Program-made: the position numbers and the translations under genes
Shown: positions 1-19,031 of the stretch, one piece after another
How the letters are laid out: each line of letters starts with the position of its first letter
How positions within the stretch are numbered: position 1 is the stretch's first letter
The notes under the pieces: generated by a model
What the model was told of the DNA's origin: nothing
Database searches by the model: none
What the model saw: only the letters and a program-made list of their open reading frames with translations
Source: an uncultured virus (IMG/VR IMGVR_UViG_3300033069_000905)
Taxonomy: Duplodnaviria; Heunggongvirae; Uroviricota; Caudoviricetes
IMG/VR virus record: IMGVR_UViG_3300033069_000905
Location: 111,954 to 131,953 of that record
DNA: 20,000 nucleotides
Reading direction: 5' to 3' (one strand)

Positions 1-15
1 ATACATAATCGCCAT
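1..15 (-). CDS. 5' end of a gene running off the left edge (MAIMY...)
   Basis: ATG at 15-13, preceded by the CGGAGTG RBS seen at other genes here and by the promoter at 46-74. Confidence 0.55.
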
Positions 16-45: not shown

Positions 46-74
46 AGTATAGTCCGTTTTATTCAGTTTGTCAA
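46..74 (-). promoter_or_regulatory. sigma70-type promoter
   Basis: TTGACA-17 bp-TATACT on the minus strand, intergenic. Confidence 0.85.
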
Positions 75-140: not shown

Positions 141-983
141 TCAGAACCCCCAAACGTTGCCTTTTACCTTGACCGGGGTTACGCTACATGTCTGTACGTA
201 CCCATCCGAGCCGTGACCCTTTGTTGACTTTGCAATAACAGAGTGCCCCTTCTGTAAACCTGACGAAGAAAAGTCTAGCTCCCTGTTCGCATAAAAACCC
301 TTATCCACACCCAACGCGGAGTAATACTTATCTTCGTACTCACCGTACCGTGCCGCTATGGGGTAAGTTTTTGACGGGGCAACCTTGTCGATACCAAAGT
401 GCTTGTTGAGCCAATCAATCTGCTTTTGACTCTCTACCGCTTTTTTGCAGTAGTTTGTTCGCACGTACTCAATGGCGTTTTTGTTGCCCGTCATGTGCAT
501 AACCAGAGCAGCCAGCACCGTACCCGTTCTTCCGTGTCCGCCAATGCACCCCAAGTGCACCTTCTTCCCTGATTTCAAGGCGTCTTCAAGATAGCCCAGC
601 AGCTTCCTGAATTCAACGATGTTGTCAGGAACACCGCTGTCTACGATATGGAATTCGAAGGCGATACGACCAGACCACGGATAGATTTTGAACTGTTCCA
701 TGCTCCGCTCAAAGCCCACGTAAACATCGGCGTCTTTAACCACGGGGTCTAAACATGACCCACCGTAAATTTTGTAGTCACCTATTGCCAACGCGGGGTG
801 GCTGTGTGCACACTTCGGGAGAGTTGATTTAGTCACGCGCACAGGTGCTTTCGTTTTGCTGGTGCTGAACGTAGCTTTGGCGTCATTGAAAGGTATGACT
901 TTTCCTTTTGATGAGCCAGTACGACTCGCCAAAGCAAGGTCTTTTGCTTTCTTCCAAGAATCCCAATCCATCGGCTTGTTCAT
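141..983 (-). CDS. CX5R protein-tyrosine/dual-specificity phosphatase superfamily protein
   Basis: VHLGCIGGHGRTG P-loop, upstream IVDSGVP acid loop, downstream AIEYVR...AVESQKQ (Q-loop-like); low-complexity extensions at both ends. Confidence 0.85.
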   Translation of the reverse strand: MNKPMDWDSWKKAKDLALASRTGSSKGKVIPFNDAKATFSTSKTKAPVRVTKSTLPKCAHSHPALAIGDYKIYGGSCLDPVVKDADVYVGFERSMEQFKIYPWSGRIAFEFHIVDSGVPDNIVEFRKLLGYLEDALKSGKKVHLGCIGGHGRTGTVLAALVMHMTGNKNAIEYVRTNYCKKAVESQKQIDWLNKHFGIDKVAPSKTYPIAARYGEYEDKYYSALGVDKGFYANRELDFSSSGLQKGHSVIAKSTKGHGSDGYVQTCSVTPVKVKGNVWGF

Positions 984-1957
984 GCCGCACTCCGTTCAAT
1001 CACAGAAGCATACGATTTGGGCGTGACATAAATTTGTTTCTTCGCATACGCCTTAGAATACGCCCCGTGTGCTGCTACCTGTTTAGCTTTTTCACTTGGA
1101 TAATCACCCAAAGCGCCTAGCGCCTCTACCTTGAACCAATCAACATAAAGCGGGTCTGGGCAAGGCAAACAGGCATCAATAGCCGACAAAGCATCATGCA
1201 GAGCGTGCGTACAGTTACCAAGTTCACCGTTAGCTACGTACTCCCTAATCTGCCCCGAGCGCTGCACGTCAAGAATCTTCAGCAACTCTTTTGTGTAGTG
1301 GTCGTAGAGCATGCCCTTGTTGAACATCGGGCCGTTGTTGTGTGCAAGCGACCACGACAAGTCATTCATCAATTCCAGAGAAATTTCACCGAAAACGACT
1401 TTCCTCAGAACTTCAGCGATTTCAGCCCACGGCTTCCCACCAAAGTTGTTTGGGTTGCCCCACTTCTTGAACACGTCAACAATCCCCGCCACGTACTCGC
1501 CCAAAGACACACCGCTGAGCGTAGACGCGCAGCCATCTTTCATGTAATCCGCCGCTGTACTTGACGAGGCGTTACTTTTTAGCCCCTTGATGAACTCAGT
1601 GATCTTGTACTGCGGGTCAAGCTTAGCAATACAGTGTGAAGGGGCGTGCCTAGCTTCGCGTGTAATAATGGTAAGGATGTAGTAGAACAGGCGAGCAGAA
1701 CTTTCAGACGCTTTTTTCAGATACAACCGAGCCAAGGCGTCCGCTTCTTCGGACAGATTTTCTTTTTTGTCGAATTGTGAACCCAGACGGCCAAAAGCGT
1801 CGTTGAGAAGATAGAAAAGAATCGCTTCTTCTTCAACACCGACTGACGTATTCGCCTTGAGGTATTTTGAGAGTTGCTGTGCCGTAGACACCAGTGGAGT
1901 CCCACTAACGTCTTGCTGCTTGAATAGCAACGCCTTTTTGTAATGCTCTAAATTCAT
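980..1957 (-). CDS. hypothetical protein, 325 aa, mostly helical
   Basis: Long ORF with CGGAGTG RBS before ATG 1957, its own promoter and an ATGA overlap with the phosphatase gene; motif-like segments FGGKPW and LAHNNGPMFNKG; family not recognised. Confidence 0.8.
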   Translation of the reverse strand: MNLEHYKKALLFKQQDVSGTPLVSTAQQLSKYLKANTSVGVEEEAILFYLLNDAFGRLGSQFDKKENLSEEADALARLYLKKASESSARLFYYILTIITREARHAPSHCIAKLDPQYKITEFIKGLKSNASSSTAADYMKDGCASTLSGVSLGEYVAGIVDVFKKWGNPNNFGGKPWAEIAEVLRKVVFGEISLELMNDLSWSLAHNNGPMFNKGMLYDHYTKELLKILDVQRSGQIREYVANGELGNCTHALHDALSAIDACLPCPDPLYVDWFKVEALGALGDYPSEKAKQVAAHGAYSKAYAKKQIYVTPKSYASVIERSAA

Positions 1958-1985
1958 AATCACTCCGTTGATTCAGTATTGCTTG

Positions 1986-2014
1986 AGGATACTACACTGC
2001 CATAAGTTTGTCAA
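1986..2014 (-). promoter_or_regulatory. sigma70-type promoter
   Basis: TTGACA-17 bp-TATCCT, overlapping the stop codon of the upstream gene. Confidence 0.8.
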
Positions 2015-2460
2015 TAGAACAATGCAATTACTTTCGCCACTTCCAACGTCACCTTGGTTTTTAGGCTAGGGCTATAGTCCGTCACTAGCGCTTGTTGTTC
2101 TTTCGTTTCAATGGCGTGGCTCTTGTAGTTGTCTCGCACGTATTGAACGGCTTTTTCTTCGCCAAGCAGAGTCATCAGCGCACCAAAGAACAGGCCAGTC
2201 CGACCAATACCCCCCATGCACCCGACATACATCGGTTTTTTGCGTGCGATTGGGATAAGCGCTTGCCTGATCCCGCGATCCAAATCTTCTTTATCCGGCA
2301 CAGAAAAATCTTCTGTGGGGATGTCGATATTGCAAGGATGATTAATCTCTTTTGCCATCTTCACGCCGAAAAAACCATCAGGCTTGACACGGTAAGGGCC
2401 ACCCACAATCCTGCGGGGTGATCCACCAAAAGAGAAATCAAAATTTTGTACAGCAGACAT
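2011..2460 (-). CDS. minimal CX5R protein-tyrosine/dual-specificity phosphatase
   Basis: YVGCMGGIGRTG P-loop, IPTEDFSVP acid loop, AVQYVR...AIETKEQ. Confidence 0.85.
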   Translation of the reverse strand: MSAVQNFDFSFGGSPRRIVGGPYRVKPDGFFGVKMAKEINHPCNIDIPTEDFSVPDKEDLDRGIRQALIPIARKKPMYVGCMGGIGRTGLFFGALMTLLGEEKAVQYVRDNYKSHAIETKEQQALVTDYSPSLKTKVTLEVAKVIALFY

Positions 2461-2832
2461 TTATCGCCCTTTCGTCTTGCACTCTTGGCAAGGTATAGTG
2501 TTTCGTATTTCATTTGTCCCGTGGCACTTACGACAGTTCTTGTCTTTACCACAACAGTCACAATCGTCTATCACGAGAATCCGTTTTGTGTCATTGCAGA
2601 ATGCACAACGCACATATTGTTTATGAGTATATACCTGTGGTTCTGGTTTGTCAAGCACTTCAACGTGCGGCTTGTGCCTAACTACACCCCGCAAGTACCC
2701 ACGACCTTCTGTACGCACGTCTGTACGCCCATCAATCCGTTTTCTTCGCGGTGTGTGCGGAGTAACAACCGTTGGTGTGGTGGGTGCGGCCTCAACCGGC
2801 GAAGGCTTACTGGTACTGTAGCGTACTGTCAA
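2461..2832 (-). CDS. Cys-rich zinc-finger protein (DnaJ-CR-like CxxC repeats)
   Basis: CAFC, CDCC, CRKCHG and CQEC in the C-terminal half; start uncertain (TTG 2832 chosen to limit overlap). Confidence 0.55.
   Translation of the reverse strand: MTVRYSTSKPSPVEAAPTTPTVVTPHTPRRKRIDGRTDVRTEGRGYLRGVVRHKPHVEVLDKPEPQVYTHKQYVRCAFCNDTKRILVIDDCDCCGKDKNCRKCHGTNEIRNTIPCQECKTKGR
2626..2654 (-). promoter_or_regulatory. sigma70-type promoter (intragenic, upstream of the small phosphatase gene)
   Basis: TTGACA-17 bp-TATACT with the same TTGACAAAC context as the intergenic promoters. Confidence 0.7.
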
Positions 2833-3115
2833 CTCGTTTGTCTCGATTGTTGTCGCGTAGGATGACGACAGAACGTGGGGCGCTGATAAGTATGTGGGCT
2901 TGTGTTCTGGTCTTCTCGTGGTCAGGAAGCCCAACGCCTACATAAACATCGGGGATGACCTCAATGTAATCCACCGCATCAAGCACGAACTCAGTGCCCC
3001 TCACAGACACCACCATCTCATCTTTACGAGGGGATATATACACGACAGTCAACGGAGTGTCCCCAAGGTAAATCACCCTACCCTCAGACACCCCCAAAGA
3101 TAATCCTTTACCCAT
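2807..3115 (-). CDS. CsrA/RsmA-like RNA-binding protein (divergent, with internal insertion)
   Basis: N-term LSLGVSEGRVIYLGD resembles CsrA LILTRRVGETLMIGD; C-term AHILISAPRSVVILR resembles VRIGIxAPKxVxxHR. Confidence 0.55.
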   Translation of the reverse strand: MGKGLSLGVSEGRVIYLGDTPLTVVYISPRKDEMVVSVRGTEFVLDAVDYIEVIPDVYVGVGLPDHEKTRTQAHILISAPRSVVILRDNNRDKRVDSTLQYQ

Positions 3116-3116
3116 A

Positions 3117-3524
3117 TTAACGCCCCATCAATCGTTTAGCTGTGTCCGTGGTGATCCAAGTGCTGCCGCCGACGATGCCGCGCTTGTAGTCGGTTATTTC
3201 AACAAGACCCTTGTATCTGAGAATAGTAAGTTGTGATGCCACATCCGAACTGGTCTGTGCAACTTCCGCGCTTTGGTTAACCAGTTCAGTAACATGCTTG
3301 GTGCTTGCGGGTTCAATGGCAAATAACGCGCCCAAGGCACACAAAAGTTTTGTTCCGCGTCTTGGTAGAGTGACTTCTTCTTCGATGTCAATATGGTCAG
3401 TCTGACTACCATCCGCATACTTCGATTGAACCAGTTTTAGAAAACCACAAAAGCATTTTAGAAAAACGCCCGTGTGGTCTTCGATATACCGCGCAGAAAC
3501 GCTACAGCACTTAGGACACTCCAT
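3117..3524 (-). CDS. Zn-ribbon plus winged-HTH putative transcription regulator
   Basis: CPKC...CFCG followed by the wHTH pattern STKHVTELV...SSDVASQLTILRYKGLVE...GGSTW; start may lie up to 75 bp further upstream. Confidence 0.65.
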   Translation of the reverse strand: MECPKCCSVSARYIEDHTGVFLKCFCGFLKLVQSKYADGSQTDHIDIEEEVTLPRRGTKLLCALGALFAIEPASTKHVTELVNQSAEVAQTSSDVASQLTILRYKGLVEITDYKRGIVGGSTWITTDTAKRLMGR

Positions 3525-3595
3525 GTCAATCCCCCCGCAGAACTCCACGGGGTTAAATTGTACGAAGTTATTTGAATTGTAAATAGTCATGTTAA

Positions 3596-5710
3596 TCAAG
3601 CACTCAGAAGGGACTTCAAAACAACGTCTTCAGAAGCAACCAACTTCTGATAAGAAACAACTGAAGGAACGCTATCCCCTGCAATCACTAGCTCCGTGAG
3701 GGGTTCGCCAGAAAAGCCTTTCAATTCAAGCACTTTACCCACGGCATCCTTTTTATTCGCCAAACCGTCGCCAAACTTCACGGTTCCTTTGGCGAAAAGC
3801 AAATCTTCGACAGAATTGACTTCTTCGATCAAAGAAAAACCAACATCCGTCAGCTTGCTTTTTAGCTTGTGGGTTACGCTAAAAAAGCCAAGATCAATCG
3901 CCACAGGCTTCGTCGGCTTAGCTTCAGCCAGACTGTCCAGCTTGCTTCTTGACACCTTTTTGTAGTCGAACAGTTCAAACAACTCAAACAGCGGCTTGTC
4001 ATATTCAACAACCGATTCGACTGACGTAGCGATAGAAATGATCCCTTCAAAGTCGTTAGCAACATGCTTCAGATGGTCGGGGTTCTTATCAAACTCACGT
4101 GTGTCAAGATAGCCGTAAGTACCCGATGTAACCAGCGGCACGAAAGAAACTTCACCGTGTACCCACGCAGATAACGTACTCAGTTCGGTATTGCTATCAG
4201 CCGCAATTATCGGAACATCGCTACCAACCCAAATGTTGCCCGTATCACCCTCAATCGTGATCTTGGTTTCACCTTCCGCGATGTAAGCACCGTTCAACGC
4301 CCAATAGTCGCCCCCCGAAACAGTCTTTCCCTGAGTCAAGTCAAGGCAACCGACCACGCAAACCTTGTCCATCCCGCGAGCCACCACCGCAGCGTGTGAG
4401 GATGATCCCCCTGTTTGGGTAAGAATCCCCACAGCCGCATTCATCCCTGCGATGTCATCAGGAGTGGTTTCCTTGGACAGCAGAATAACACTTTTTGTCT
4501 TCGCCAGTTCAACAGCTTTTTCCGATGAGAACACCGCCACGCCCGTAGCAAAACCCGTTGACGCAGCCAGTCCTTTACCCGTAGGGGCAATAGAAAACGA
4601 AGGATCAATCACAGGGCGACTTGCCATGAGGTATTGATCATACGAAATACGCGAGAATGCCGTCTTACGATCAATCACGCCCTCAAACACCAAGTCAACC
4701 GCCACCTTAACCGCAGCTTTTGCCGTGCGCTTGGCATTACGAGTTTGCAGGATAAACAGTTCACCGTCTTGAATAGTGAATTCAATATCTTGCATGTCGG
4801 CAAACGACTTTTCAAGCTTGTCAGCCGTTAGAATCAACTGTGCGAAGCTGTCAGTATTCCATTCAAGCATCGACTCTATCGGCAAAGGTGTACGCACACC
4901 AGAAACCACGTCTTCGCCCTGAGCGTTAACAAGGTACTCACCAACCGCCTTATTTTCGCCTGTAGCGGGGTTACGAGAAAAGAGAACACCCGTAGCTGAC
5001 TTGTCGTTCATGTTACCGAAAACCATTGCCTGAATAATACAAGCAGTCCCCAAGTCATGCGGAATCTTGTTCAGGTTACGATAGGTAATCGCACGGTCGG
5101 TATTCCACGAACCGTAAACCGCCTTGATTGCCCGACGCAATTGCATTTTGAACGTCTGTGGGAAGTCTGGCGTGATGCCAAGGAAAAGTTCGCAGATTAC
5201 TTTAAGGGATTGAACCGACAGTTCGGCGTCCGTAGAAACTTTCTCTACTTCTTTAACGTCATCCAGAATCGCTTCGTACTTGCTGGAAGAAATATTGAAC
5301 ACCACCGAACCGAACATCTGAATCAGACGACGATACGAGTCCCAAGCCGCACGTTCACCGATGCGCTTTTCCCACGCTTTAATCGTGGTTGAAGTCAGGC
5401 CAACGTTTAGGATTGTTTCGCACATGCCGGGGCAGCTAACCTTAGCGCCCGAACGAACAGAGAAAAGTGGCAGATAGCCAAACTTCTTTTCGATTTCATC
5501 AATGTAAGTATAGGCTTGCAGGGCAAGTGCCGCAGTGGACTCCGTACCCGCGTTGATACCCGCACAAAGCGTAGTGGGGAGAATGATTGCCGGGGGGACA
5601 TTGATCCCCAGACCAGCCATTTTCAAAAGGTTAAGCCCTTTACCCCCAAGAACGTCGATAGACGCTTCCGAAGGGGAACCAAAACCTACAGGGTAAAATT
5701 CAGCACTCAT
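3596..5710 (-). CDS. ppdK: pyruvate phosphate dikinase-like protein: ATP-grasp and phospho-His swivel domains, non-canonical C-terminus
   Basis: LGGKG, SVRSGA, QAMVFGN, NAQGEDVVSG, DIEF, LQTR and GGSSSHAAVVARG motifs; no PEP/pyruvate-barrel motifs; CGGAGTG RBS before ATG 5710. Confidence 0.9.
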   Translation of the reverse strand: MSAEFYPVGFGSPSEASIDVLGGKGLNLLKMAGLGINVPPAIILPTTLCAGINAGTESTAALALQAYTYIDEIEKKFGYLPLFSVRSGAKVSCPGMCETILNVGLTSTTIKAWEKRIGERAAWDSYRRLIQMFGSVVFNISSSKYEAILDDVKEVEKVSTDAELSVQSLKVICELFLGITPDFPQTFKMQLRRAIKAVYGSWNTDRAITYRNLNKIPHDLGTACIIQAMVFGNMNDKSATGVLFSRNPATGENKAVGEYLVNAQGEDVVSGVRTPLPIESMLEWNTDSFAQLILTADKLEKSFADMQDIEFTIQDGELFILQTRNAKRTAKAAVKVAVDLVFEGVIDRKTAFSRISYDQYLMASRPVIDPSFSIAPTGKGLAASTGFATGVAVFSSEKAVELAKTKSVILLSKETTPDDIAGMNAAVGILTQTGGSSSHAAVVARGMDKVCVVGCLDLTQGKTVSGGDYWALNGAYIAEGETKITIEGDTGNIWVGSDVPIIAADSNTELSTLSAWVHGEVSFVPLVTSGTYGYLDTREFDKNPDHLKHVANDFEGIISIATSVESVVEYDKPLFELFELFDYKKVSRSKLDSLAEAKPTKPVAIDLGFFSVTHKLKSKLTDVGFSLIEEVNSVEDLLFAKGTVKFGDGLANKKDAVGKVLELKGFSGEPLTELVIAGDSVPSVVSYQKLVASEDVVLKSLLSA

Positions 5711-5728
5711 AAACACTCCGTTGTTTTG

Positions 5729-5744
5729 TTGCAAGTAATTTCAA
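5729..5744. promoter_or_regulatory. recurrent operator-like motif TTGCAAGTAATTTCAA, copy 1
   Basis: Lies between the promoter and RBS of the dikinase gene; repeated at 9741, 13294 and 16906. Confidence 0.6.
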
Positions 5745-5751
5745 TAGCCCA

Positions 5752-5780
5752 AGTATAGCGCCCTGTTCTTGTTTTGTCAA
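5752..5780 (-). promoter_or_regulatory. sigma70-type promoter of the dikinase operon
   Basis: TTGACA-17 bp-TATACT. Confidence 0.85.
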
Positions 5781-5959
5781 GCTATATCAAGTGCATCGTG
5801 CACAGCTATCAGGAACCCCACAGAATCCACATCGGGGATCACGCCGTTTAGCAGTTCATCGCGTGTGCCCTCTAGCTCTTGGCGATCTATTTCTTCAAGG
5901 GGAGACTCCAATACAGACATCACCTTGCCTAGCAAGGATTCTACCTCACCTGCTTCCAT
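5777..5959 (-). CDS. small acidic hypothetical protein
   Basis: Fills the gap between the kinase gene and the promoter; overlaps the upstream stop. Confidence 0.6.
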   Translation of the reverse strand: MEAGEVESLLGKVMSVLESPLEEIDRQELEGTRDELLNGVIPDVDSVGFLIAVHDALDIA

Positions 5960-6500
5960 ATCTATCCTGTGTATGCCTGAAAAATTCAGCTAAGTATATG
6001 CCCATGCGTTGTTTTGTTCCACTGTTGTCATAGGTCGCGTCAACTTCAAACTCTTGTGTTTCGCTGGCATGGGATGATCCGGGAACGTCTTCTTCCTGCG
6101 GTCGGGTGACCCGTAGCAGTACACCATTGTTGTTACGTATCCAATTCGCTTCGTCGGGGAAACGCACGTCATCAAACACCACCGTCATGTGTTCTCTGAC
6201 CTTCCCTACGGCAAGTTTTGCTCTACGTACCCAGAAATCTTGTCCGAAGTTTTGACGCATACATTCGGTTCCTAGCTTCTGTAGCATTTCCCGCCTTGTA
6301 ATCCCCCAATAGGGATCAACTGCGCTTTTTCCTTGCGAGAAGTCTTCTGGCTTCAATCCAAAGAGGGAACACGCAGCCTCTTTCAACGGTGTGGCAAAGG
6401 ATAGCTTGCACACGAAAAACTGGCGAACCAGTTCATCAGCCGCAGTCGTCTTTCCCGCCCCCATTGCCCCCGCAATACCAATAATTATCCGCTTTGCCAT
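5946..6500 (-). CDS. deoxynucleoside monophosphate kinase (T4 gp1-like)
   Basis: P-loop GAMGAGKTT, SFATPLKE, REMLQKLGTE, FWV, DDVRFPDEA, HASE. Confidence 0.92.
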   Translation of the reverse strand: MAKRIIIGIAGAMGAGKTTAADELVRQFFVCKLSFATPLKEAACSLFGLKPEDFSQGKSAVDPYWGITRREMLQKLGTECMRQNFGQDFWVRRAKLAVGKVREHMTVVFDDVRFPDEANWIRNNNGVLLRVTRPQEEDVPGSSHASETQEFEVDATYDNSGTKQRMGIYLAEFFRHTQDRYGSR

Positions 6501-7987: not shown

Positions 7988-8016
7988 ATTATCACACGAT
8001 ACGCACAGTTTGTCAA
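7988..8016 (-). promoter_or_regulatory. sigma70-type promoter
   Basis: TTGACA-17 bp-GATAAT. Confidence 0.75.
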
Positions 8017-8483
8017 GAGTTAGGCAAGTAAATCCACTCTCGCCCTGCGGCTAACCATAAATCCATAGACGCACTGTGAGGGTACTGCTCAGCAAAAACG
8101 ATGCGCTTACACCCTGTCCCCAACAATGACTTAACGCAGCGAATACAAGGGGATGCAGTAACGTAAGCTGTGTATATTTTCCTTACGTTTTTACAATACA
8201 GCAAGGCGTTATCCTCTGCATGAAGGGCTTCACAGCCATCCAAGTTCGTACCTGAAGGGGCAAATGCCGCAGAACAGGCATGGGGATAAACCGCACCTAT
8301 CTCGTGGCTAACTGTGTCGCAGTTAGGCAAACCCGCAGCTTTCCCATTGTACCCTGTCGACATGATTCTGTTATGCTTGGTTACGATGACACAACCCACC
8401 TTACGCCGCAGACAACTCCCCCGTGCAGCTACGTCTTTGGCAATCTGCATAAAATACTCATCCCACGAGGGTCTAGTTTCCAT
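8013..8483 (-). CDS. dCMP deaminase (ComEB-like)
   Basis: RPSWDEYFM, RRKVGCVI, TGYNG, HAE and SPCIRC zinc-deaminase motifs. Confidence 0.93.
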   Translation of the reverse strand: METRPSWDEYFMQIAKDVAARGSCLRRKVGCVIVTKHNRIMSTGYNGKAAGLPNCDTVSHEIGAVYPHACSAAFAPSGTNLDGCEALHAEDNALLYCKNVRKIYTAYVTASPCIRCVKSLLGTGCKRIVFAEQYPHSASMDLWLAAGREWIYLPNS

Positions 8484-8859
8484 TTTTAATCCTTTTGTCT
8501 CGTTGAACAAACAACTCAGTGATCCCATCTATAGCCGCGTTGTAGTCATCAACCCACTTCGCTGAATCAACCTTCCTCCACGGCTTAGCCGCACGTTTAA
8601 CAGCACACCACGCATAGCCCGCTGTCTTCGGCCACTTCTTCACCGCTTCGATATACAAGTCCAAGTCTTCTGCGGCTAAGTTCTCCGCATCAGCCCCCGG
8701 CACAAAAATATCGTTGCAATTAATTGCAGGATAGGCACCGTCGTCCCACGTTTCTTTTATGCTGTTGTAGCTGGTCAGGAAAATCTGATCTTCCACCAGC
8801 AACCAGAAAATCTTGCGTGCCGTTTCAAGTTCTGTGGTCAATACGTTCAACTCAGACAT
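8473..8859 (-). CDS. hypothetical protein
   Basis: ORF overlapping both neighbours in operon fashion. Confidence 0.75.
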   Translation of the reverse strand: MSELNVLTTELETARKIFWLLVEDQIFLTSYNSIKETWDDGAYPAINCNDIFVPGADAENLAAEDLDLYIEAVKKWPKTAGYAWCAVKRAAKPWRKVDSAKWVDDYNAAIDGITELFVQRDKRIKNGN

Positions 8860-10420: not shown

Positions 10421-12520
10421 CTACGACGCTTTCAGAATCTTCGCAAAATCCATTTTGGTGATGTTGGCGTCTTTGGGGTCAAACTTACCGTTGTTTCCAA
10501 CAGCAGACTTTATTTGTTCGGGATTAAAAGCAACTATCTCATCATACTTGGAGTCAGCAGTATTGCCGTGGATAAAGATTCCGTCAAAGCCCTTCTCAGC
10601 TAGATTAACCGACTCCAAATCATTCTGTTCTTCTGTGTTTTCGTTGTAGCGGTCAATATCAGCAGATGTTGCTATGTACGGCTTCTTTATACTAAGATAC
10701 ACAGGCATGACGTTAGCCCCGGAACCACCACCCCGCGTAAACCTGTCTGCAAACTCAGGGTTGTTAGAAAAGAAAAACCCCATCCAATGCGTTTTTGACC
10801 CGCCAGTTTTCTGTGGTGCCTTATAGCTAAACTCAGTGAAGTCAGAATTCGTTCCGTGATACATCACCCGTGGTTTCCCTTCTTTATCTACTACCTTACT
10901 CCTTTTGAACCACGCCTTGAATTCTTTTGTTTCTGTTTGCCCTGTATGGTCTATCCACTGATTGCCGTGGAAAGCATGACCGTCCTTATCCCCTTTCAGT
11001 AGCTGTGAAAAATCACGTTTTAAGGTACGCCCAACTAAACTAACTTTCCTGTCTGTGGGGATGGCGCGCCACTTTCCATCCCCCGCTTTATAATGAACGG
11101 CAGTTAATTGCACTTCTTTCCACTTCTTTGTATTGATGTAGGAATTACCCATCCCGAAGCTAGGTGGGTTGTCTTCTGAGTCCCAACCAACAGGCTGTTT
11201 TCCTTCCAAGACAACAGAAACAGAGAAAGAGACACGCTTCTGTCCGTCAGCAAAACGGCTCTCTACTTCTTTGCGGTTTTCCCCATCAATACCTTCCTCT
11301 GTATAAGCAAACTCTTTTGAATCATCTAAACCAGCACCGTCTTGGTGGGAGTACCAGTAGTTTCCTACGCGCTTGGTGTCGACCATACCTAAAACGTCTT
11401 CGGCTGTGGCCGTTCCGTCTTTTATCTTATGGTAAAGGCCGATGTTAGCTTCCACGTTAGCCTCTATGCCTCTGGATATGGTGTGTCCTGATTTACTCGC
11501 GTCAACAGGGCTTAAGTCAGACCACTGATTCCCACGGAAAGGATGGCCTACCTTATCACCCTTCTGTGTAGCACCGACTTGAGCCAGCGTCTTTGAAAAC
11601 ACCTTGGGGAAGCTAAACATCAAGTCCAATGCTTTTCTAACGGGGATCGACATGCGGTTGATGTTAACCTTACCGTCTGGATTCAATTCCAAGTTCCTAG
11701 CCCAACGGTTCGTACCGTCCAGAACATAATTATCCTTTGACACGGTTATCGGCTTACTCAAAGCTTCGGGGGTCAGTTGTTTCGCTTGTTCCACATTAAA
11801 GTGCTTCTGTGTGGGCTTCAAAGAAGAAAGGTGTACCTGTTCTGGTGTAATGGTGATACCTTTCTTCTTAGCGAATTCAGTGAACTCAGGAAAGTCTGAG
11901 GATTGAATCTGCGGCATGTCTTTTCGATCAATGCCAAGAGAATCTGAAAAATTACCCTTTTCATCCCACAGCGGTTTTTTATTAGAAAACGCCTTGTCTA
12001 TGGCCGTAGCAATACGATGTGTATTATCTCCATCCTTCGCTGCTTCTGCTAATATGTCCTTTACAGGGACTTCTTTTATTAGTTTCGAAGTGAACCCCGC
12101 ACCGTCGCTAGGGAAGCTGTAGCCTGTGCCGAAGAAATACTGATCCCGCCCGACTTGGGGGTTAGTTCCTTTTTCTTCTGGGTTTCCCTTGAAACCAATA
12201 TGCTCGTACTCCCCTGTATCTTTGGTGAGCGTGACTTCATGGGAGTAAATCTTCTCGTCCTTGATTTCGCCTTCTTCTTTCCAGTTCAGTATATGGGCTT
12301 CGATCCCGAACGCATTGCCCCCGTTGACACCTTTCAGTTCGGGGGACGTTCCAACACGATAAACAATAAATTTGGTTCCTGCTTTAAGAACAGGATTTTT
12401 CTGTACGGCATCCCATCCTTCGGCACTGACGTTAGCCTTGGCAAAACGTCCACCCTTACTGGAACCTGCGGGTTCATGGTAAGGGTCGGATTTCATTATC
12501 CGTGAGAACGTCGTGCCCAT
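10421..12520 (-). CDS. modular polyvalent-type protein with ParB/Srx-like and C-terminal ADP-ribosyltransferase-like (ART-PolyVal) domains
   Basis: LKPTQ...PITVSKDNYVLDGTNRW (ParB-like); VMYHGT...GFFFS...VMPVYLSIKKP...GFDGI...EIVAFNPEQIKSA (ART-PolyVal-like); repeated KGDKxGHxFxGNQW linkers. Confidence 0.75.
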   Translation of the reverse strand: MGTTFSRIMKSDPYHEPAGSSKGGRFAKANVSAEGWDAVQKNPVLKAGTKFIVYRVGTSPELKGVNGGNAFGIEAHILNWKEEGEIKDEKIYSHEVTLTKDTGEYEHIGFKGNPEEKGTNPQVGRDQYFFGTGYSFPSDGAGFTSKLIKEVPVKDILAEAAKDGDNTHRIATAIDKAFSNKKPLWDEKGNFSDSLGIDRKDMPQIQSSDFPEFTEFAKKKGITITPEQVHLSSLKPTQKHFNVEQAKQLTPEALSKPITVSKDNYVLDGTNRWARNLELNPDGKVNINRMSIPVRKALDLMFSFPKVFSKTLAQVGATQKGDKVGHPFRGNQWSDLSPVDASKSGHTISRGIEANVEANIGLYHKIKDGTATAEDVLGMVDTKRVGNYWYSHQDGAGLDDSKEFAYTEEGIDGENRKEVESRFADGQKRVSFSVSVVLEGKQPVGWDSEDNPPSFGMGNSYINTKKWKEVQLTAVHYKAGDGKWRAIPTDRKVSLVGRTLKRDFSQLLKGDKDGHAFHGNQWIDHTGQTETKEFKAWFKRSKVVDKEGKPRVMYHGTNSDFTEFSYKAPQKTGGSKTHWMGFFFSNNPEFADRFTRGGGSGANVMPVYLSIKKPYIATSADIDRYNENTEEQNDLESVNLAEKGFDGIFIHGNTADSKYDEIVAFNPEQIKSAVGNNGKFDPKDANITKMDFAKILKAS

Positions 12521-15109: not shown

Positions 15110-15675
15110 TTTCTTCTTCCCACTTCAAACGCAGCACGCAAAACGGCGTGTGCTTCATCACCAAGGTCAGGGTCAGCGTCATCACCTTCTTCATGCCAGA
15201 ATTCTTGGATCAAAGTTCTGTCGGGAAGACGCTTCCATACGCACTGGTCAGGAAAATCAATGTTCAAGCGCAAGGTTTTGATCAACTCGTAGCGATCCCC
15301 CAAGTTCTTCAGCGGATTCCATACATCCCCATTGATCAGCATCATACCGTCGACGGGGAACTTTTTGTTCTCCTGTACGTAGATATAATCCATGGCAATC
15401 GCAGCCGCTTCTAATAGTTCACGATCCGTCACTTGCAATCCTTTCTTATTGTGGGCATCAATGTCGGTATTGCTTGGTCTGCAAGGTGTATAAGGTACAA
15501 ACTCGTAGCGTCTTCCAGCGTCATCAGCCGCTAGGCGTAGTGCATCTTCCGCGCTTATGATTTGCCAGTCCCCCCATGTATTCGGGCCATTCTCGTGACC
15601 ATCAGGAAATCCAAGGTTGTAGACTCGCCACAACCATTGATCATACAGTGGCGTAGTTTCACGATCCGTCATCAT
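15106..15675 (-). CDS. hypothetical protein, probable in-frame fusion of two small genes
   Basis: GGAG RBS before ATG 15675/15672; internal AAGGA plus GTG start at 15432 (VTDRELLEAAA). Confidence 0.65.
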   Translation of the reverse strand: MMTDRETTPLYDQWLWRVYNLGFPDGHENGPNTWGDWQIISAEDALRLAADDAGRRYEFVPYTPCRPSNTDIDAHNKKGLQVTDRELLEAAAIAMDYIYVQENKKFPVDGMMLINGDVWNPLKNLGDRYELIKTLRLNIDFPDQCVWKRLPDRTLIQEFWHEEGDDADPDLGDEAHAVLRAAFEVGRRK

Positions 15676-16021
15676 CACTCCATAGTTTATGGACGTACAC
15701 ACGCAAGCCCCTACGTCTGGCACTATCAATCATCCCCTTGGTGCCTTTGCTGTCCCCATCCCACAATGCAATCAGGGCTTCAGCGTGCTTTGACATTTCA
15801 TCATTCCTGATATGCCCTGCCCTTTTTCCATAGCGTTCCCAATTCGCAGGGAACTGCTCGCACGGAACACCGAACTCCATCGCCCATGCTTCGCCCATCT
15901 GATCCACACCACGGGCAGTTCCGCTGATGACTACCGTGGGCGTCCAGCCACATAGCTTCAACGCCCGTAGCAGTTCCCTCTTGTCGTAGCATCCACGGCT
16001 ACCCGCGATGATTGTTCTCAT
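15659..16021 (-). CDS. SLOG-superfamily protein (YspA/DUF2493-like)
   Basis: IIAGSR, VVISGTARGVD, FPANWERYGKRAGHIRN, ALWDGDSKGT. Confidence 0.88.
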   Translation of the reverse strand: MRTIIAGSRGCYDKRELLRALKLCGWTPTVVISGTARGVDQMGEAWAMEFGVPCEQFPANWERYGKRAGHIRNDEMSKHAEALIALWDGDSKGTKGMIDSARRRGLRVYVHKLWSDDDGS

Positions 16022-16716
16022 GCCTTGTTTTCGAGTTGAGCCAGTTTTGAAATGGAATCCAGCCCCAGACGATGTGCTGTCATTTGGCTGTAGGACTCGA
16101 CTTCTATTTTTGCGTCACTGGTCGCCTTTTCAAGAGCCACTTCAGCCGCCTTAACCGAATACTCAAGGTTCCCCGGCAGGTTTTTCACGTGGCAGTTAAG
16201 AGAAAACAACCGCTCTTTCAGCGCCTTTTTGGGGATCGTTCCTGATTCAACCAAAACATTGATTGCGGCCAGTTCTTCAGTGATCTTCTGGATTTGTTCC
16301 GCAGAAGAACGCCCAATTTCGTCACGGTGTAAATCCGCTTTGGATTGGATATGTTCAATGGCGGGGATAACCTCAAGACCAGCCTTCGGGGGAGCAGCGT
16401 ACAGCAAGGTAATCGGTGTGCCTGATCCATTGCCTTGCGACGTAATGAACTGTGCAAATTGAGCGTGTGACATTTCAAACTCACACAAAATGTCTTTACC
16501 GAAAACCCAATCACGCCCTAAGTCACGCCGCAGTTCTGCACGCTGCACTTGAATTCGCATCGCCGCGTTATGCCCGATGTCTGATCCGAACAAGGTTGTA
16601 CTGCCCCCTGTTGTTTGAGACAGCGTAACCAGACCGTAGGCCGGGTGAGAATACACATCCCCACTGTGCATCGAAGTGTCAGGCGTAATCTTAGGTTTTT
16701 CGTATTTTCGTGTCAT
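16018..16716 (-). CDS. hypothetical phage protein
   Basis: AAGGA RBS; HPAYG...LFGSD N-terminal domain plus coiled-coil. Confidence 0.8.
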   Translation of the reverse strand: MTRKYEKPKITPDTSMHSGDVYSHPAYGLVTLSQTTGGSTTLFGSDIGHNAAMRIQVQRAELRRDLGRDWVFGKDILCEFEMSHAQFAQFITSQGNGSGTPITLLYAAPPKAGLEVIPAIEHIQSKADLHRDEIGRSSAEQIQKITEELAAINVLVESGTIPKKALKERLFSLNCHVKNLPGNLEYSVKAAEVALEKATSDAKIEVESYSQMTAHRLGLDSISKLAQLENKA

Positions 16717-17346: not shown

Positions 17347-17973
17347 CTAAAAATTTAACTTGTGCGGCCAGTTATTTGTTTTTATGAAGTCGTCCCTTGC
17401 AATAGCTGCTTCAAGTTCTGTATCAAACGTCCCGACGTAGTACGCTACACCACTACGCTTTATGGAAGCCTCCCACTTACTTCCTCTTAAAGATACACCT
17501 AAGTATTTTGAAGACGTGTTCGCTGCTTTTCTTTGGTTTGCGGCTTGAGTGTTCCAATCAGACCACTTGCAGTTATCAGGTTCGTAATTACCTTCTACAT
17601 GTATTCTATCAATTGTTAGTTCATCTGTGTATCCCGCTTTAATCGCCCACTCTCTAAAAACAGCAAAATTGTCCCAAGTGTGCGCGTAAGTAATGCCCAA
17701 CGCACCATAATTCTTATAGTCTGTTGCTTTTGTGTCGGTGCAGCGTCTTCGCATGTTTATCCACGTTTGATATAGCCTTGTTTTTTTACCCCCGTGTGTG
17801 GTTACTGCATCCCTGTTGGCGCAACCGCAGGATGTTGTTATTCCCGTCCTTAAGGACGACGCTCGCACTTTTGTTAAGTTTCCACAGACGCATAAGCACT
17901 CCCATTTAAGGTGCCTGTCTGTTTTAGCTGCCGGTGCTACTACCGTAAGCCTTCCGAATGTTTTTCCTATCAT
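17347..17973 (-). CDS. HNH homing endonuclease with C-terminal AP2 domain
   Basis: GKTFGRLTV...CLCVCG...SCGC; TIDRI...GNYEPDNCKW...QAAN; SKYLGV...KWEASI...GTFDTELEAA. Confidence 0.9.
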   Translation of the reverse strand: MIGKTFGRLTVVAPAAKTDRHLKWECLCVCGNLTKVRASSLRTGITTSCGCANRDAVTTHGGKKTRLYQTWINMRRRCTDTKATDYKNYGALGITYAHTWDNFAVFREWAIKAGYTDELTIDRIHVEGNYEPDNCKWSDWNTQAANQRKAANTSSKYLGVSLRGSKWEASIKRSGVAYYVGTFDTELEAAIARDDFIKTNNWPHKLNF

Positions 17974-18356
17974 GCGTAGGTGCCCCAATAATTTTTAGAA
18001 TCGCCTAAGTAGGTTCTCCAAAACTCGTCAAAAAAGCAGTTTTCTGATGCGCTAGAAAATAGGGGCGCTACCGCGCTATCACATAAATTTGCGAGTCCGC
18101 AGCCTACCCGCGTGACATTAAACTCAAGGTCGGGGTTAGCTTTGGCATACTCAACAAAGCCGTCCACGTACTGCTTGATAACGGTCAGGGGGAGCGTCCT
18201 CAGTCGTCCGTCTTTAGTGGGGATAGCATAGGCATTACCTGTTCTACCCACGCCAACGCCGTATACAGCCCCGTAGTTAAGCTTGGCGTAGAGTGCTGCA
18301 CCCTTACCATGACGGCCATCAAAATTGCTCCCGAATACAAAGCACCTACTTGTCAT
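17970..18356 (-). CDS. A1S_2505-family phage protein (macrodomain-like)
   Basis: FVFGSNxxGRHGKGAA, AYAIPTK and FNVTRVGCGLA motifs. Confidence 0.8.
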   Translation of the reverse strand: MTSRCFVFGSNFDGRHGKGAALYAKLNYGAVYGVGVGRTGNAYAIPTKDGRLRTLPLTVIKQYVDGFVEYAKANPDLEFNVTRVGCGLANLCDSAVAPLFSSASENCFFDEFWRTYLGDSKNYWGTYA

Positions 18357-18999
18357 TGCATTTAAACCTCTGTTTTGATGTATTTATTGGCGTCATAATG
18401 GAATCTTCTAGCGTCATACCTGTCCTACGACGTTCTTTTACTAAACCGTACCTGATCCCTTTTATACGGCACCACTCGCCAATTGAGTGTGTCTCATCAC
18501 CCATCACTACACGGGCTGTGTGTGATTGATTCTGTGCTTGTTCTAGCTTAGTTGCCCACCTACAATTACTAGGCTCGTAGCCTTTAGCGTTGTCATTACG
18601 TTCAATCGTGTGCTTATGCGGTCGCTCTCCCATGTCTGCCAAGAAATTAGTGAACCCATCATCACCAGACCATCTATCGCACACTTTAACATGGGCGTAC
18701 CGTGGGTTAACTATAACCCGTTGGTGCATCGCTTGCCATGAACGATAGGCACCTGATTGGGCACCACGAATAGCATTAGAATGCTTAGTGTTCTTGGCAG
18801 CAACAAGTTCAGACCTATAACAACCACACGATGTTATGTTTAAAAACCTAACCCAATTGACGGTAGCCTCAATCACAGTCCCGCAAGAGCATAGAAACAC
18901 GGCTTGACGACGGTTTTTATACGAAGGTAGTTCATACTGGTACGTTAGCCTAGTGTTGGGAATCAAATCCCCCTTTTTATAGATAATGCGTGCTGGCAT
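18346..18999 (-). CDS. HNH homing endonuclease
   Basis: CSCG...TSCGC; YRSWQAMHQR, VCDRW, FLADMGERP, TIERNDNAKGYEPSNCRWAT..EQAQN. Confidence 0.9.
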   Translation of the reverse strand: MPARIIYKKGDLIPNTRLTYQYELPSYKNRRQAVFLCSCGTVIEATVNWVRFLNITSCGCYRSELVAAKNTKHSNAIRGAQSGAYRSWQAMHQRVIVNPRYAHVKVCDRWSGDDGFTNFLADMGERPHKHTIERNDNAKGYEPSNCRWATKLEQAQNQSHTARVVMGDETHSIGEWCRIKGIRYGLVKERRRTGMTLEDSIMTPINTSKQRFKCNDK

Positions 19000-19031
19000 G
19001 TGCAAACTAATCCGTGTTTGGAAACCTAGCT

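Follow-up and report, generated by a model that had tools for sequence, protein, structure and literature searches.

A conserved phage gene block with a barrel-less dikinase, a predicted trans partner, and cysteine phosphatases

In rifampin phosphotransferase, PigC/RedH, and glucan water dikinase, the acceptor domain lies in the same polypeptide as the rest of the dikinase. Phenylphosphate synthase, and the 4-cresol kinase CreHI with its phosphatase CreD, are dikinases that are split over polypeptides, and the transient phosphate, which activates or protects the substrate, is later removed. Glucan water dikinase and the phosphatases SEX4, LSF2, and laforin phosphorylate and dephosphorylate starch and glycogen. 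Phages have DNA-base systems such as thymidine hypermodification, with a 5-hydroxymethyldeoxyuridine (5-hmdU) DNA kinase and aGPT-Pplase, and the Z-genome cluster PurZ/MazZ/DatZ/DpoZ. Here we analyze a phage gene block that encodes a dikinase without the phosphoenolpyruvate (PEP)/pyruvate barrel, a 325-amino-acid (aa) protein that is its predicted partner, and two cysteine phosphatases. The block lies in IMG/VR record IMGVR_UViG_3300033069_000905, from an uncultured virus of the Caudoviricetes. By "the window" we mean the 20,000 nucleotides at positions 111,954 to 131,953 of that record, which are the final 20 kb of a 131,953-bp viral contig. A 178-kb version of the same phage is also present in IMG/VR.

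We propose that the block encodes a phage-specific, multi-subunit phosphotransfer system: a split dikinase would find its acceptor in trans, on the 325-aa protein, and would be served by dedicated phosphatases. We give this scheme an even chance of being right.

Open reading frame (ORF) calls and family scans place all seven cluster genes on the minus strand. They run in the order dikinase, Zn-ribbon/winged helix-turn-helix (wHTH), CsrA-like, Zn-finger, phosphatase A, 325-aa protein, and phosphatase B, as an earlier note on this DNA had listed them. That note had ended the cluster at base 141; it extends further, into a fifth conserved gene, which we call X. The conserved genes are:

3596..5710, minus strand: barrel-less dikinase, 704 aa, with an ATP-grasp of the pyruvate phosphate dikinase (PPDK) type, a swivel domain with His439, and a non-conserved C-terminal part of ~200 aa (Pfam, alignments)
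2807..3115, minus strand: divergent CsrA-like protein, 102 aa (profile search, family members)
2011..2460, minus strand: phosphatase A, 149 aa, of the protein-tyrosine phosphatase/dual-specificity phosphatase (PTP/DSP) fold, with CMGGIGRT and, upstream of it, the Asp of a DFxVP motif (Pfam, alignments)
980..1957, minus strand: 325-aa all-alpha protein (U327), the predicted partner of the swivel domain (family searches, AlphaFold2, complex prediction)
141..983, minus strand: phosphatase B, 280 aa, PTP/DSP fold, with CIGGHGRT and N- and C-terminal extensions (Pfam, alignments)
1..15 (contig 111126-111968), minus strand: protein X, 280 aa, with its first five codons in the window and DNA polymerase A next to it

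The dikinase and the 325-aa protein

With the ATG at 5710 as its start, behind a ribosome-binding site, the dikinase has 704 aa; an ORF with a TTG start (712 aa) reaches 5734. In Pfam, the protein matches PPDK_N (PF01326, E = 1.2e-41) and PEP-utilizers (PF00391, E = 1.1e-19). Residues 15-512 of solved PPDKs (1kbl/9pzl) align to residues 25-509 of the phage protein (712-aa numbering; E = 1.7e-115). The earlier note had named His439 as the catalytic histidine, and in the 704-aa numbering this residue is indeed invariant across 57 aligned phage homologues, as are the ATP-grasp residues. Past P500, the same 57-sequence alignment has no invariant or nearly invariant column. Taken together, these patterns indicate that the engine of the enzyme is intact and that it has no conserved acceptor site in cis. 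A word search with the tail gave just 3 close relatives.

PEP-utilizers_C, which is the PEP/pyruvate barrel, has no match in the dikinase at E ≤ 0.01; in the same scan, the values for two canonical 881-aa PPDKs were 6.9e-76 and 3.5e-78. Because the domain is absent and these controls score strongly, we concluded that the dikinase cannot be a pyruvate enzyme. This agrees with the earlier proposal that it serves a non-pyruvate acceptor. Against the NCBIfam equivalog TIGR01828, the dikinase reaches 521.3 bits (the cut-off is 843.45) and covers only profile positions 7-523 of 865. It also has weak matches to the NCBIfam models RPH, PigC, and RedH across the ATP-grasp, and its swivel domain is related to enzyme I of the phosphotransferase system (PTS) (E in the 1e-4 range; TIGR01417 at 1.6e-6).

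Could this still be a genuine PPDK, carried as an auxiliary metabolic gene for glycolysis? The similarity across residues 25-509 is strong, and the gene is annotated in this way in GenBank records; papers on cultured relatives likewise call it a glycolytic PPDK auxiliary gene, in passages of PMC12038007, PMC9229204, and PMC10141217. However, the PEP/pyruvate-binding domain is missing, the score falls below the equivalog cut-off, no tail residue is conserved, and the gene is always embedded in a module with the phosphatases and the 325-aa protein. We consider a genuine PPDK highly improbable. Judging by domain content, the published glycolytic label is contradicted.

The 325-aa protein belongs to a large family. 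A word search found 370 homologues, and at E ≤ 1e-3 the family spans 2144 representative clusters (642 of them at E ≤ 1e-30). Among 42 sequences, 32 columns are invariant, and these include R89, T99-R100-E101, R103-H104, W177, H206-N207, N213-K214, D230, and Q232. The top 150 representative relatives are all stand-alone proteins of 262-445 aa. In a survey of prokaryotes with one genome per species (185,579 species), we found just 10 loci with this family, mostly on contigs of ~90-100 kb or from metagenome-assembled genomes, so the family is essentially phage-borne. These 10 loci add no independent gene context.

AlphaFold2 gives a confident, all-alpha model of the 325-aa protein (predicted local distance difference test [pLDDT] 88.9, predicted template modelling score [pTM] 0.86), which does not resemble any described fold in the collections that we searched. 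No Pfam family matches the sequence at E ≤ 10, and there is no match in NCBIfam or PADLOC. With the model as the query, Foldseek against the PDB gave a best E of 0.52, and an exhaustive VIA-align comparison with 48,161 chains gave a best Z of 4.4. Foldseek against BFVD found four full-length relatives of the protein itself and one 143-aa match at E = 0.03, and nothing else. In the ESM Atlas, the protein is in no named cluster, and the ESM Atlas model is itself poor.

As the dikinase has no conserved acceptor domain, we asked if the 325-aa protein might dock on it. We ran ESMFold2 with residues 340-704 of the dikinase and the 325-aa protein, with a custom-built alignment for each. The interface score ipSAE, which expresses the confidence of the model, was 0.68, 0.70, and 0.73 for this pair and 0.00 in all three controls. 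In calibration, the ipSAE mark was attained by 116/157 solved complexes and by 2/215 mismatched pairs. At least 80% of contacts recur between runs, and the pLDDT of the partner is 80-81. Because the 325-aa protein has no match in the PDB, the score cannot reflect a remembered solved complex. On the dikinase side, the predicted contacts involve the histidine loop (433-439, with His439), residues 442-448, and, in the tail, the peptide at 568-578 (VEYDKPLFELF). The earlier note had called the 325-aa protein an uncharacterised partner and had suggested predicting complexes between pairs of these proteins. The family is real and phage-restricted, and for this pair the prediction (ipSAE of 0.70 against 0.00) supports binding.

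The phosphatases and conservation across phages

Both phosphatases look catalytically intact, as expected from the earlier description of two CX5R enzymes. The glycine-rich CX5R is retained in all 72 phosphatase A sequences and all 73 phosphatase B sequences from related loci. Aspartates that precede the P-loop (DFxVP in A and D..P in B) are conserved at 90% or more and would be the general acids. Both proteins also share a conserved motif, YVRxxY..AVE(T/S)..Q. Pfam scores for DSP-PTPase families are near the gathering thresholds (PF22785 at 27.2 vs. 27 bits for A; 26.2 vs. 27 bits, and DSPc at 21.8 vs. 33.5 bits, for B), and solved relatives include 25xa (1.1e-5) and 5z59 (9.6e-8). The best Pfam matches are DSP-PTPase families that are named for toxin and NAD-kinase contexts.

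The solved structures nearest to both phosphatases are small archaeal-type PTPs (5z59, 9e9l, 2i6i), which raises the idea of protein phospho-signaling. In this scenario, the phosphatases would act on host phosphoproteins and the dikinase on a protein too, which might be the 325-aa protein, phosphorylated in a PTS-like relay from His to His or Cys. The homology of the swivel domain to PTS enzyme I and two invariant histidines in the 325-aa protein fit such a relay. On the other hand, the general-acid aspartate and the conserved Gln-containing motif of the phosphatases are typical of hydrolases and not of carriers, the invariant residues of the 325-aa protein resemble an enzyme pocket, and we saw no HPr-like or kinase partner. 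We think that a protein substrate is improbable, and the same goes for this scenario as a whole.

To describe the gene block across phages, we took the best 80 of 124 IMG/VR matches to the 325-aa protein (29-40% identical), which gave 79 loci, and scanned them with custom profiles. The genes lie in one order and on one strand, with the dikinase in 71 loci, the CsrA-like protein in 72, phosphatase A in 78, phosphatase B in 77, X in 74, and DNA polymerase A in 74. Wherever the contig reaches, the order is dikinase, CsrA-like, phosphatase A, 325-aa protein, phosphatase B, X, and DNA polymerase A. The gaps coincide with contig ends, except for three misses of the CsrA-like protein. With identities of 30-40%, phages that infect Vibrio, Stenotrophomonas, Rhizobium, and Rhodobacter keep this order. 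In several lineages the block lies between the terminase and the portal (GenBank relatives, and also a passage of PMC8601537). The earlier note had proposed searching phages for co-occurrence of the dikinase, both phosphatases, the 325-aa protein, and the CsrA-like gene; these are kept together in the 79 loci. By sequence and gene order, they form one conserved module.

In cultured phages, 40 records contain the 325-aa protein and 40 contain phosphatase A, with the same hosts in both sets (33 Vibrio, 4 Stenotrophomonas, 2 Rhizobium, and 1 Rhodobacter). The dikinase is found in 57 records of the phage collection. We checked two of the 16 dikinase-only records, and both are canonical 881-aa PPDKs in records marked "UNVERIFIED." The Vibrio clade of SIO-2/J26 has a single phosphatase.

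In the phage collection, the full-length type of DNA polymerase A that neighbors the block is nearly confined to phages with the module. As the module phages form one clade with a distinctive polymerase, part of the linkage reflects inheritance and not independent selection.

GenBank relatives of these proteins are often misannotated. Phosphatase homologues are labeled "thymidylate synthase (thyX)," a name that is carried by PHROG 17568; homologues of the 325-aa protein are labeled "putative membrane protein"; and relatives of X are labeled "pyruvate decarboxylase" or "transporter." We found no paper that recognizes the module (supplements of the cited papers were outside the scope of this search).

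Proposed mechanism and candidate substrates

In the scheme that we favor, ATP would be bound by the ATP-grasp and the beta-phosphate would be carried on His439 of the swivel domain, as suggested by the close homology to solved PPDKs. The acceptor site would be supplied in trans by the 325-aa all-alpha protein: the tail peptide of the dikinase (568-578) would tether this protein, and the His439 loop would dock on it. Phosphorylation of the substrate would then take place in a pocket of the 325-aa protein where invariant Arg, His, Lys, Asn, and aromatic residues abound. The CX5R phosphatases might afterwards take off the same phosphate or a related one, which would amount to the writer/eraser pairing of the earlier note; they would recycle an activated intermediate or clear it away, or else trim related phospho-substrates. 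Regulation would fall to the CsrA-like protein and to the variable Zn-finger and wHTH proteins, whose targets may be the GGA-containing AACGGAGUG ribosome-binding sites that several genes share. The block as a whole is inherited beside DNA polymerase A. Our analysis shows the gene content, its conservation, the intact motifs, and a predicted interaction, and from these we infer which way the phosphate moves and what the phosphatases do.

Several results weigh against this scheme. The docking score is a model's confidence, and this limits what it can say about binding. The predicted interface, with 57 residues of the 325-aa protein, takes in just 7 of its 32 invariant residues, compared with ~5.6 expected by chance, so the overlap lends no support to docking of His439 into the conserved pocket. 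We found no fused form of the 325-aa family among 7998 longer candidates, and so no fusion with the dikinase, which is weak evidence against a partnership. Clear orthologues of phosphatase B are present in 11/40 of the cultured module phages, so the two-phosphatase arrangement is not universal. Finally, the co-occurrence of the genes may be largely inherited, with the synteny coming from one broad clade of phages.

What might be phosphorylated? Two Stenotrophomonas phages that carry the module offer a hint. In excerpts of the papers that describe them, DLP5 DNA is cut by only 4 of 36 endonucleases (PMC5834331), and DLP3 DNA is cut by 0 of 15 (PMC7326821). Also, the partners of the dikinase are basic: the median isoelectric point is 8.65 for the 325-aa family, 9.29 for phosphatase A, 9.11 for phosphatase B, and 8.84 for X, while the dikinase is acidic (5.17). 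Because the block constantly abuts DNA polymerase A, the partners are basic, and the DNA of DLP5 and DLP3 is modified and refractory to restriction, we favor nucleotide or nucleic-acid chemistry over host carbon signaling, which the earlier note had raised. The preference is tentative: that nucleotide or DNA chemistry is the substrate class, and lies behind the heavy modification of DLP5 and DLP3 DNA, seems to us somewhat less probable than even.

A more specific version of this idea, which we regard as doubtful, is that phages use the module to make a new kind of DNA base. In a deoxynucleoside monophosphate (dNMP) or in DNA, an oxygen of the nucleobase, or some other poor nucleophile, would receive a phosphate from the dikinase and the 325-aa protein. 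The phosphate would activate the base for substitution, the cysteine phosphatases would edit the pool of deoxynucleoside triphosphates (dNTPs) and dNMPs or strip the activating phosphate, and the neighboring family A polymerase would incorporate the product. CTP synthase, PurA, and PurZ activate their substrates via acyl-phosphate-like intermediates. If the module does make a new base, this would explain why 32/36 restriction enzymes failed on DLP5 DNA, and 15/15 on DLP3 DNA, without known hypermodification genes.

A role in DNA chemistry faces difficulties of its own. A ThyA-type hydroxymethylase (PF00303) is absent from the contig and from five module genomes that are 91-100% complete, and a search of the contig for HMUDK_hel (PF18723) gave nothing at E ≤ 10. 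ThyX is found in 2/5 of these genomes, and dCMP deaminase and dNMP kinase in 1/5; because they are sporadic, these genes are not part of the module. The RcF phages of Rhodobacter share the polymerase, according to a passage of PMC8601537, and have no match to the dikinase or the 325-aa protein in the phage collection. And DLP5 and DLP3 also have genes for sugar-nucleotide metabolism, glycosyltransferases, and methyltransferases (in excerpts of PMC5834331 and PMC7326821), which could account for their modified DNA. We found no paper that joins phage hypermodification with a dikinase or with a DSP-PTPase.

We also considered if the 325-aa protein might be an aGPT-Pplase in the 5-hmdU route, and we tentatively rejected this, given that it has no Pfam match at E ≤ 10 and that HMUDK_hel and ThyA were not found. 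Models of aGPT-Pplase were presumably present in the Pfam and BFVD libraries that we used for the comparison. Separately, we noticed that genes for dNMP kinase and dCMP deaminase (window 5946-6500 and 8013-8528) lie just upstream of the module; among the five genomes, this phage is the only one with them.

Regulators, neighboring genes, and comparison with known systems

The CsrA-like protein is a weak match by itself: the copy in the window scores 14.7 bits, compared with a cut-off of 27 (E = 0.032). The CsrA profile matches 32 of 47 family members at E ≤ 0.1, with a best E of 2.7e-7, and because of this we view the 102-aa protein as a divergent homologue of CsrA. So the earlier CsrA-like assignment is sound for the family and faint for this copy alone.

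A CsrA homologue is present in 72/79 loci, and the analogies to CsrA and to glucan dikinases, which the earlier note had drawn, stay a live rival. The dikinase and the 325-aa protein might phosphorylate host glycogen or another glycan, with the DSP-type phosphatases removing the phosphate, while the CsrA-like mimic halts glycogen synthesis. The parts list would be the same (a His-swivel dikinase and one or two DSP-type CX5R phosphatases), and aromatic residues are numerous among the invariant positions of the 325-aa protein. However, Pfam finds no carbohydrate-binding module in any protein of the module, the domain order is that of PPDK and not that of glucan water dikinase, the model of the 325-aa protein matches no glycan-active fold, and a glycan cycle provides no obvious rationale for the constant place beside DNA polymerase. 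Literature searches for glucan water dikinase with bacteriophage gave plant papers only. A polysaccharide such as glycogen seems an unlikely substrate, and we view the cycle in the same light.

The remaining features of the cluster are two variable accessory genes, four promoter-like sites, and a ribosome-binding site:

3117..3524, minus strand: Zn-ribbon and possible wHTH protein, 135 aa from the ATG at 3524, with the ORF open to 3599; variable accessory gene
2461..2934, minus strand: Cys-rich Zn-finger ORF (DnaJ-type CxxC), start uncertain, conserved in its last ~50 aa; variable accessory gene
5752..5780, minus strand: promoter-like site P1 (TTGACAAA-N15-TATACT), 5' of the dikinase (motif scan)
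2626..2654, minus strand: promoter-like site P2, within the long Zn-finger ORF (motif scan)
1986..2014, minus strand: promoter-like site P3, with one mismatch, 5' of the gene for the 325-aa protein (motif scan)
46..74, minus strand: promoter-like site P4, 5' of gene X (motif scan)
5714..5720, minus strand: ribosome-binding site AACGGAGTG, ahead of the dikinase ATG (5710)

Three small families vary among the 79 loci: Zn-ribbon/wHTH-like proteins (33/79), DnaJ-type Zn-fingers (30/79), and a third small family (29/79). In the window's Zn-ribbon protein, the CxxC...CxC motif is visible, and for the wHTH part of the earlier Zn-wHTH call the one match is to LexA_DNA_bind at E = 0.26. The conserved Cys-rich part of the Zn-finger ORF (~50 aa, 2461-2613) could start at the GTG at 2613, which is ~12 nucleotides past the -10 hexamer of P2, and would then be near-leaderless. 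This mini-protein has a weak match (E = 0.0073) to the anti-TRAP protein RtpA, which binds Zn and antagonizes an RNA-binding regulator. As the ORF adjoins the CsrA-like gene, the mini-protein may antagonize the CsrA-like protein.

The generic sigma-70 scan of the window gave 4 sites, compared with 6.7 expected from shuffled sequences, which is not above chance. In contrast, the more specific motif TTGACAAA-N15-TAT[AC]CT has 4 copies in the window, all on the coding strand, where 0.10 are expected, and the 131,953-bp contig has no others. The earlier note had counted three sigma70 promoters. What holds up is a recurring specific motif; the generic sigma-70 signal is at the level of chance, and one of the sites lies inside the Zn-finger ORF. 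CGGAGTG is found 8 times in the window, compared with 2.17 expected. It lies 4-6 nucleotides 5' of the ATG of the dikinase (5714-5720), of the 325-aa gene (1961-1967), and of phosphatase B (988-994), as had been described, and of the next gene as well (20-26).

Protein X has no Pfam family and no clear fold match. Its C-terminal domain folds confidently (pLDDT > 90), and Y192, S214, R216, S243, H245, and G258 are invariant. X weakly resembles the C-terminal domain of T4 MotA and type III secretion chaperones, including the CsrA-binding CesT (Foldseek E of 0.08-1.0, with the best at 0.08-0.2). The N-terminal part has a weak likeness to the T7 dGTPase inhibitor Gp1.2 (Z of 5.8, root-mean-square deviation of 3.4 Å, 79 aligned residues), in a low-confidence region and within the noise of the tool. 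Beyond the module, the family A DNA polymerase (contig 104941-110466) is an 1841-aa ORF with matches to Intein_splicing (4e-18) and PT-HINT (1e-10), and a gene similar to NUMOD3 homing endonucleases comes after this intein-bearing polymerase.

Elsewhere in the window, positions 10421-12520 encode a 699-aa protein with a C-terminal ADP-ribosyltransferase domain (ART-PolyVal, 1.9e-28). At 15659-16716, the gene of a YAcAr/SLOG-family protein (3.9e-13) overlaps the start of a conserved, uncharacterised phage gene (phrog_6452, 5e-52), and together the two might sense nucleotides. At 17347-19005, the conserved, uncharacterised phrog_2072 is flanked by two paralogous HNH-endonuclease genes (phrog_374, 3e-67 and 1e-36). 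Elsewhere on the contig are a 1920-aa ADPrib_exo_Tox protein, a Zeta-toxin-domain protein, and an Acb3-like inhibitor of cyclic-oligonucleotide-based anti-phage signaling (CBASS; 19775-20659).

These neighbors, and the promoter-like sites, bear on another idea, that the module targets a small nucleotide and thereby counters host defense. What it breaks down or makes anew might be an immune signal, a derivative of NAD or ADP-ribose, or depleted dNTPs. The four promoter-like sites, which are of host type and absent from the rest of the contig, hint at early expression; in Pfam, the phosphatases match best to families named for toxin and NAD-kinase contexts; the genome also has Acb3, ADP-ribosyltransferase, and SLOG genes; and the N-terminal part of X is weakly like Gp1.2. 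However, none of the 8 proteins has a match in PADLOC (a library of defense models and not of anti-defense proteins), the likeness to Gp1.2 is within tool noise, and the deep, fixed gene order at 30-40% identity is unlike that of anti-defense genes, which turn over quickly. Counter-defense therefore appears unlikely to us, and we would say as much of an immune-signal, NAD-derived, or dNTP-pool molecule as the substrate.

Returning to the phosphotransfer system that we propose, its reach is broad: the module is carried by at least 40 cultured phage records and 124 IMG/VR loci, and its proteins fall into >2000 protein clusters. In print, the dikinase figures as an auxiliary gene of glycolysis ("PPDK"), and the partner proteins are mislabeled as a thymidylate synthase, a pyruvate decarboxylase, a transporter, or a membrane protein. 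Recognizing a barrel-less dikinase with a trans partner of no known fold and dedicated phosphatases would correct these annotations and define a large, uncharacterised enzyme family. It also provides a concrete set of genes as the candidate source of heavy DNA modification in DLP3 and DLP5, which are candidates for phage therapy against Stenotrophomonas.

How does the module compare with known systems? With PPDK from Clostridium symbiosum (1kbl/1dik), the phage dikinase shares an alignable ATP-grasp and phosphohistidine swivel domain and the conserved motif GGxxSHAAVVARG. It differs in its length (704 aa instead of ~875), in lacking the PEP-utilizers_C barrel, in its non-conserved tail, and in its phosphatase and 325-aa companions. 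Rifampin phosphotransferase, PigC/RedH, and glucan water dikinase use the same engine on a non-pyruvate acceptor; the phage dikinase, in contrast, lacks a conserved acceptor domain of its own, and its predicted docking partner is a separate polypeptide.

Phenylphosphate synthase and CreHI/CreD offer the likeness of a split dikinase with a dedicated phosphatase, which in the phage module is proposed. Their partner subunits are different and unrelated, and they belong to bacterial catabolism of aromatics (this comparison is by description and not by sequence). Glucan water dikinase with SEX4, LSF2, or laforin likewise pairs a dikinase with CX5R phosphatases of the dual-specificity fold, although the phage module has no carbohydrate-binding modules and a different domain order. 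The 5-hmdU and Z-genome systems resemble the module in ATP-dependent activation by phosphate, accessory phosphohydrolases, a neighboring family A polymerase, and DNA that is refractory to restriction. They differ in that the phage module lacks HMUDK_hel, ThyA, and a Pfam match for the 325-aa protein, and the kinase is of an unrelated type. We propose that the module belongs among the His-swivel dikinases whose acceptor has been swapped, a kind that is already known, and that what is new is an acceptor in trans, of no known fold, with dedicated cysteine phosphatases.

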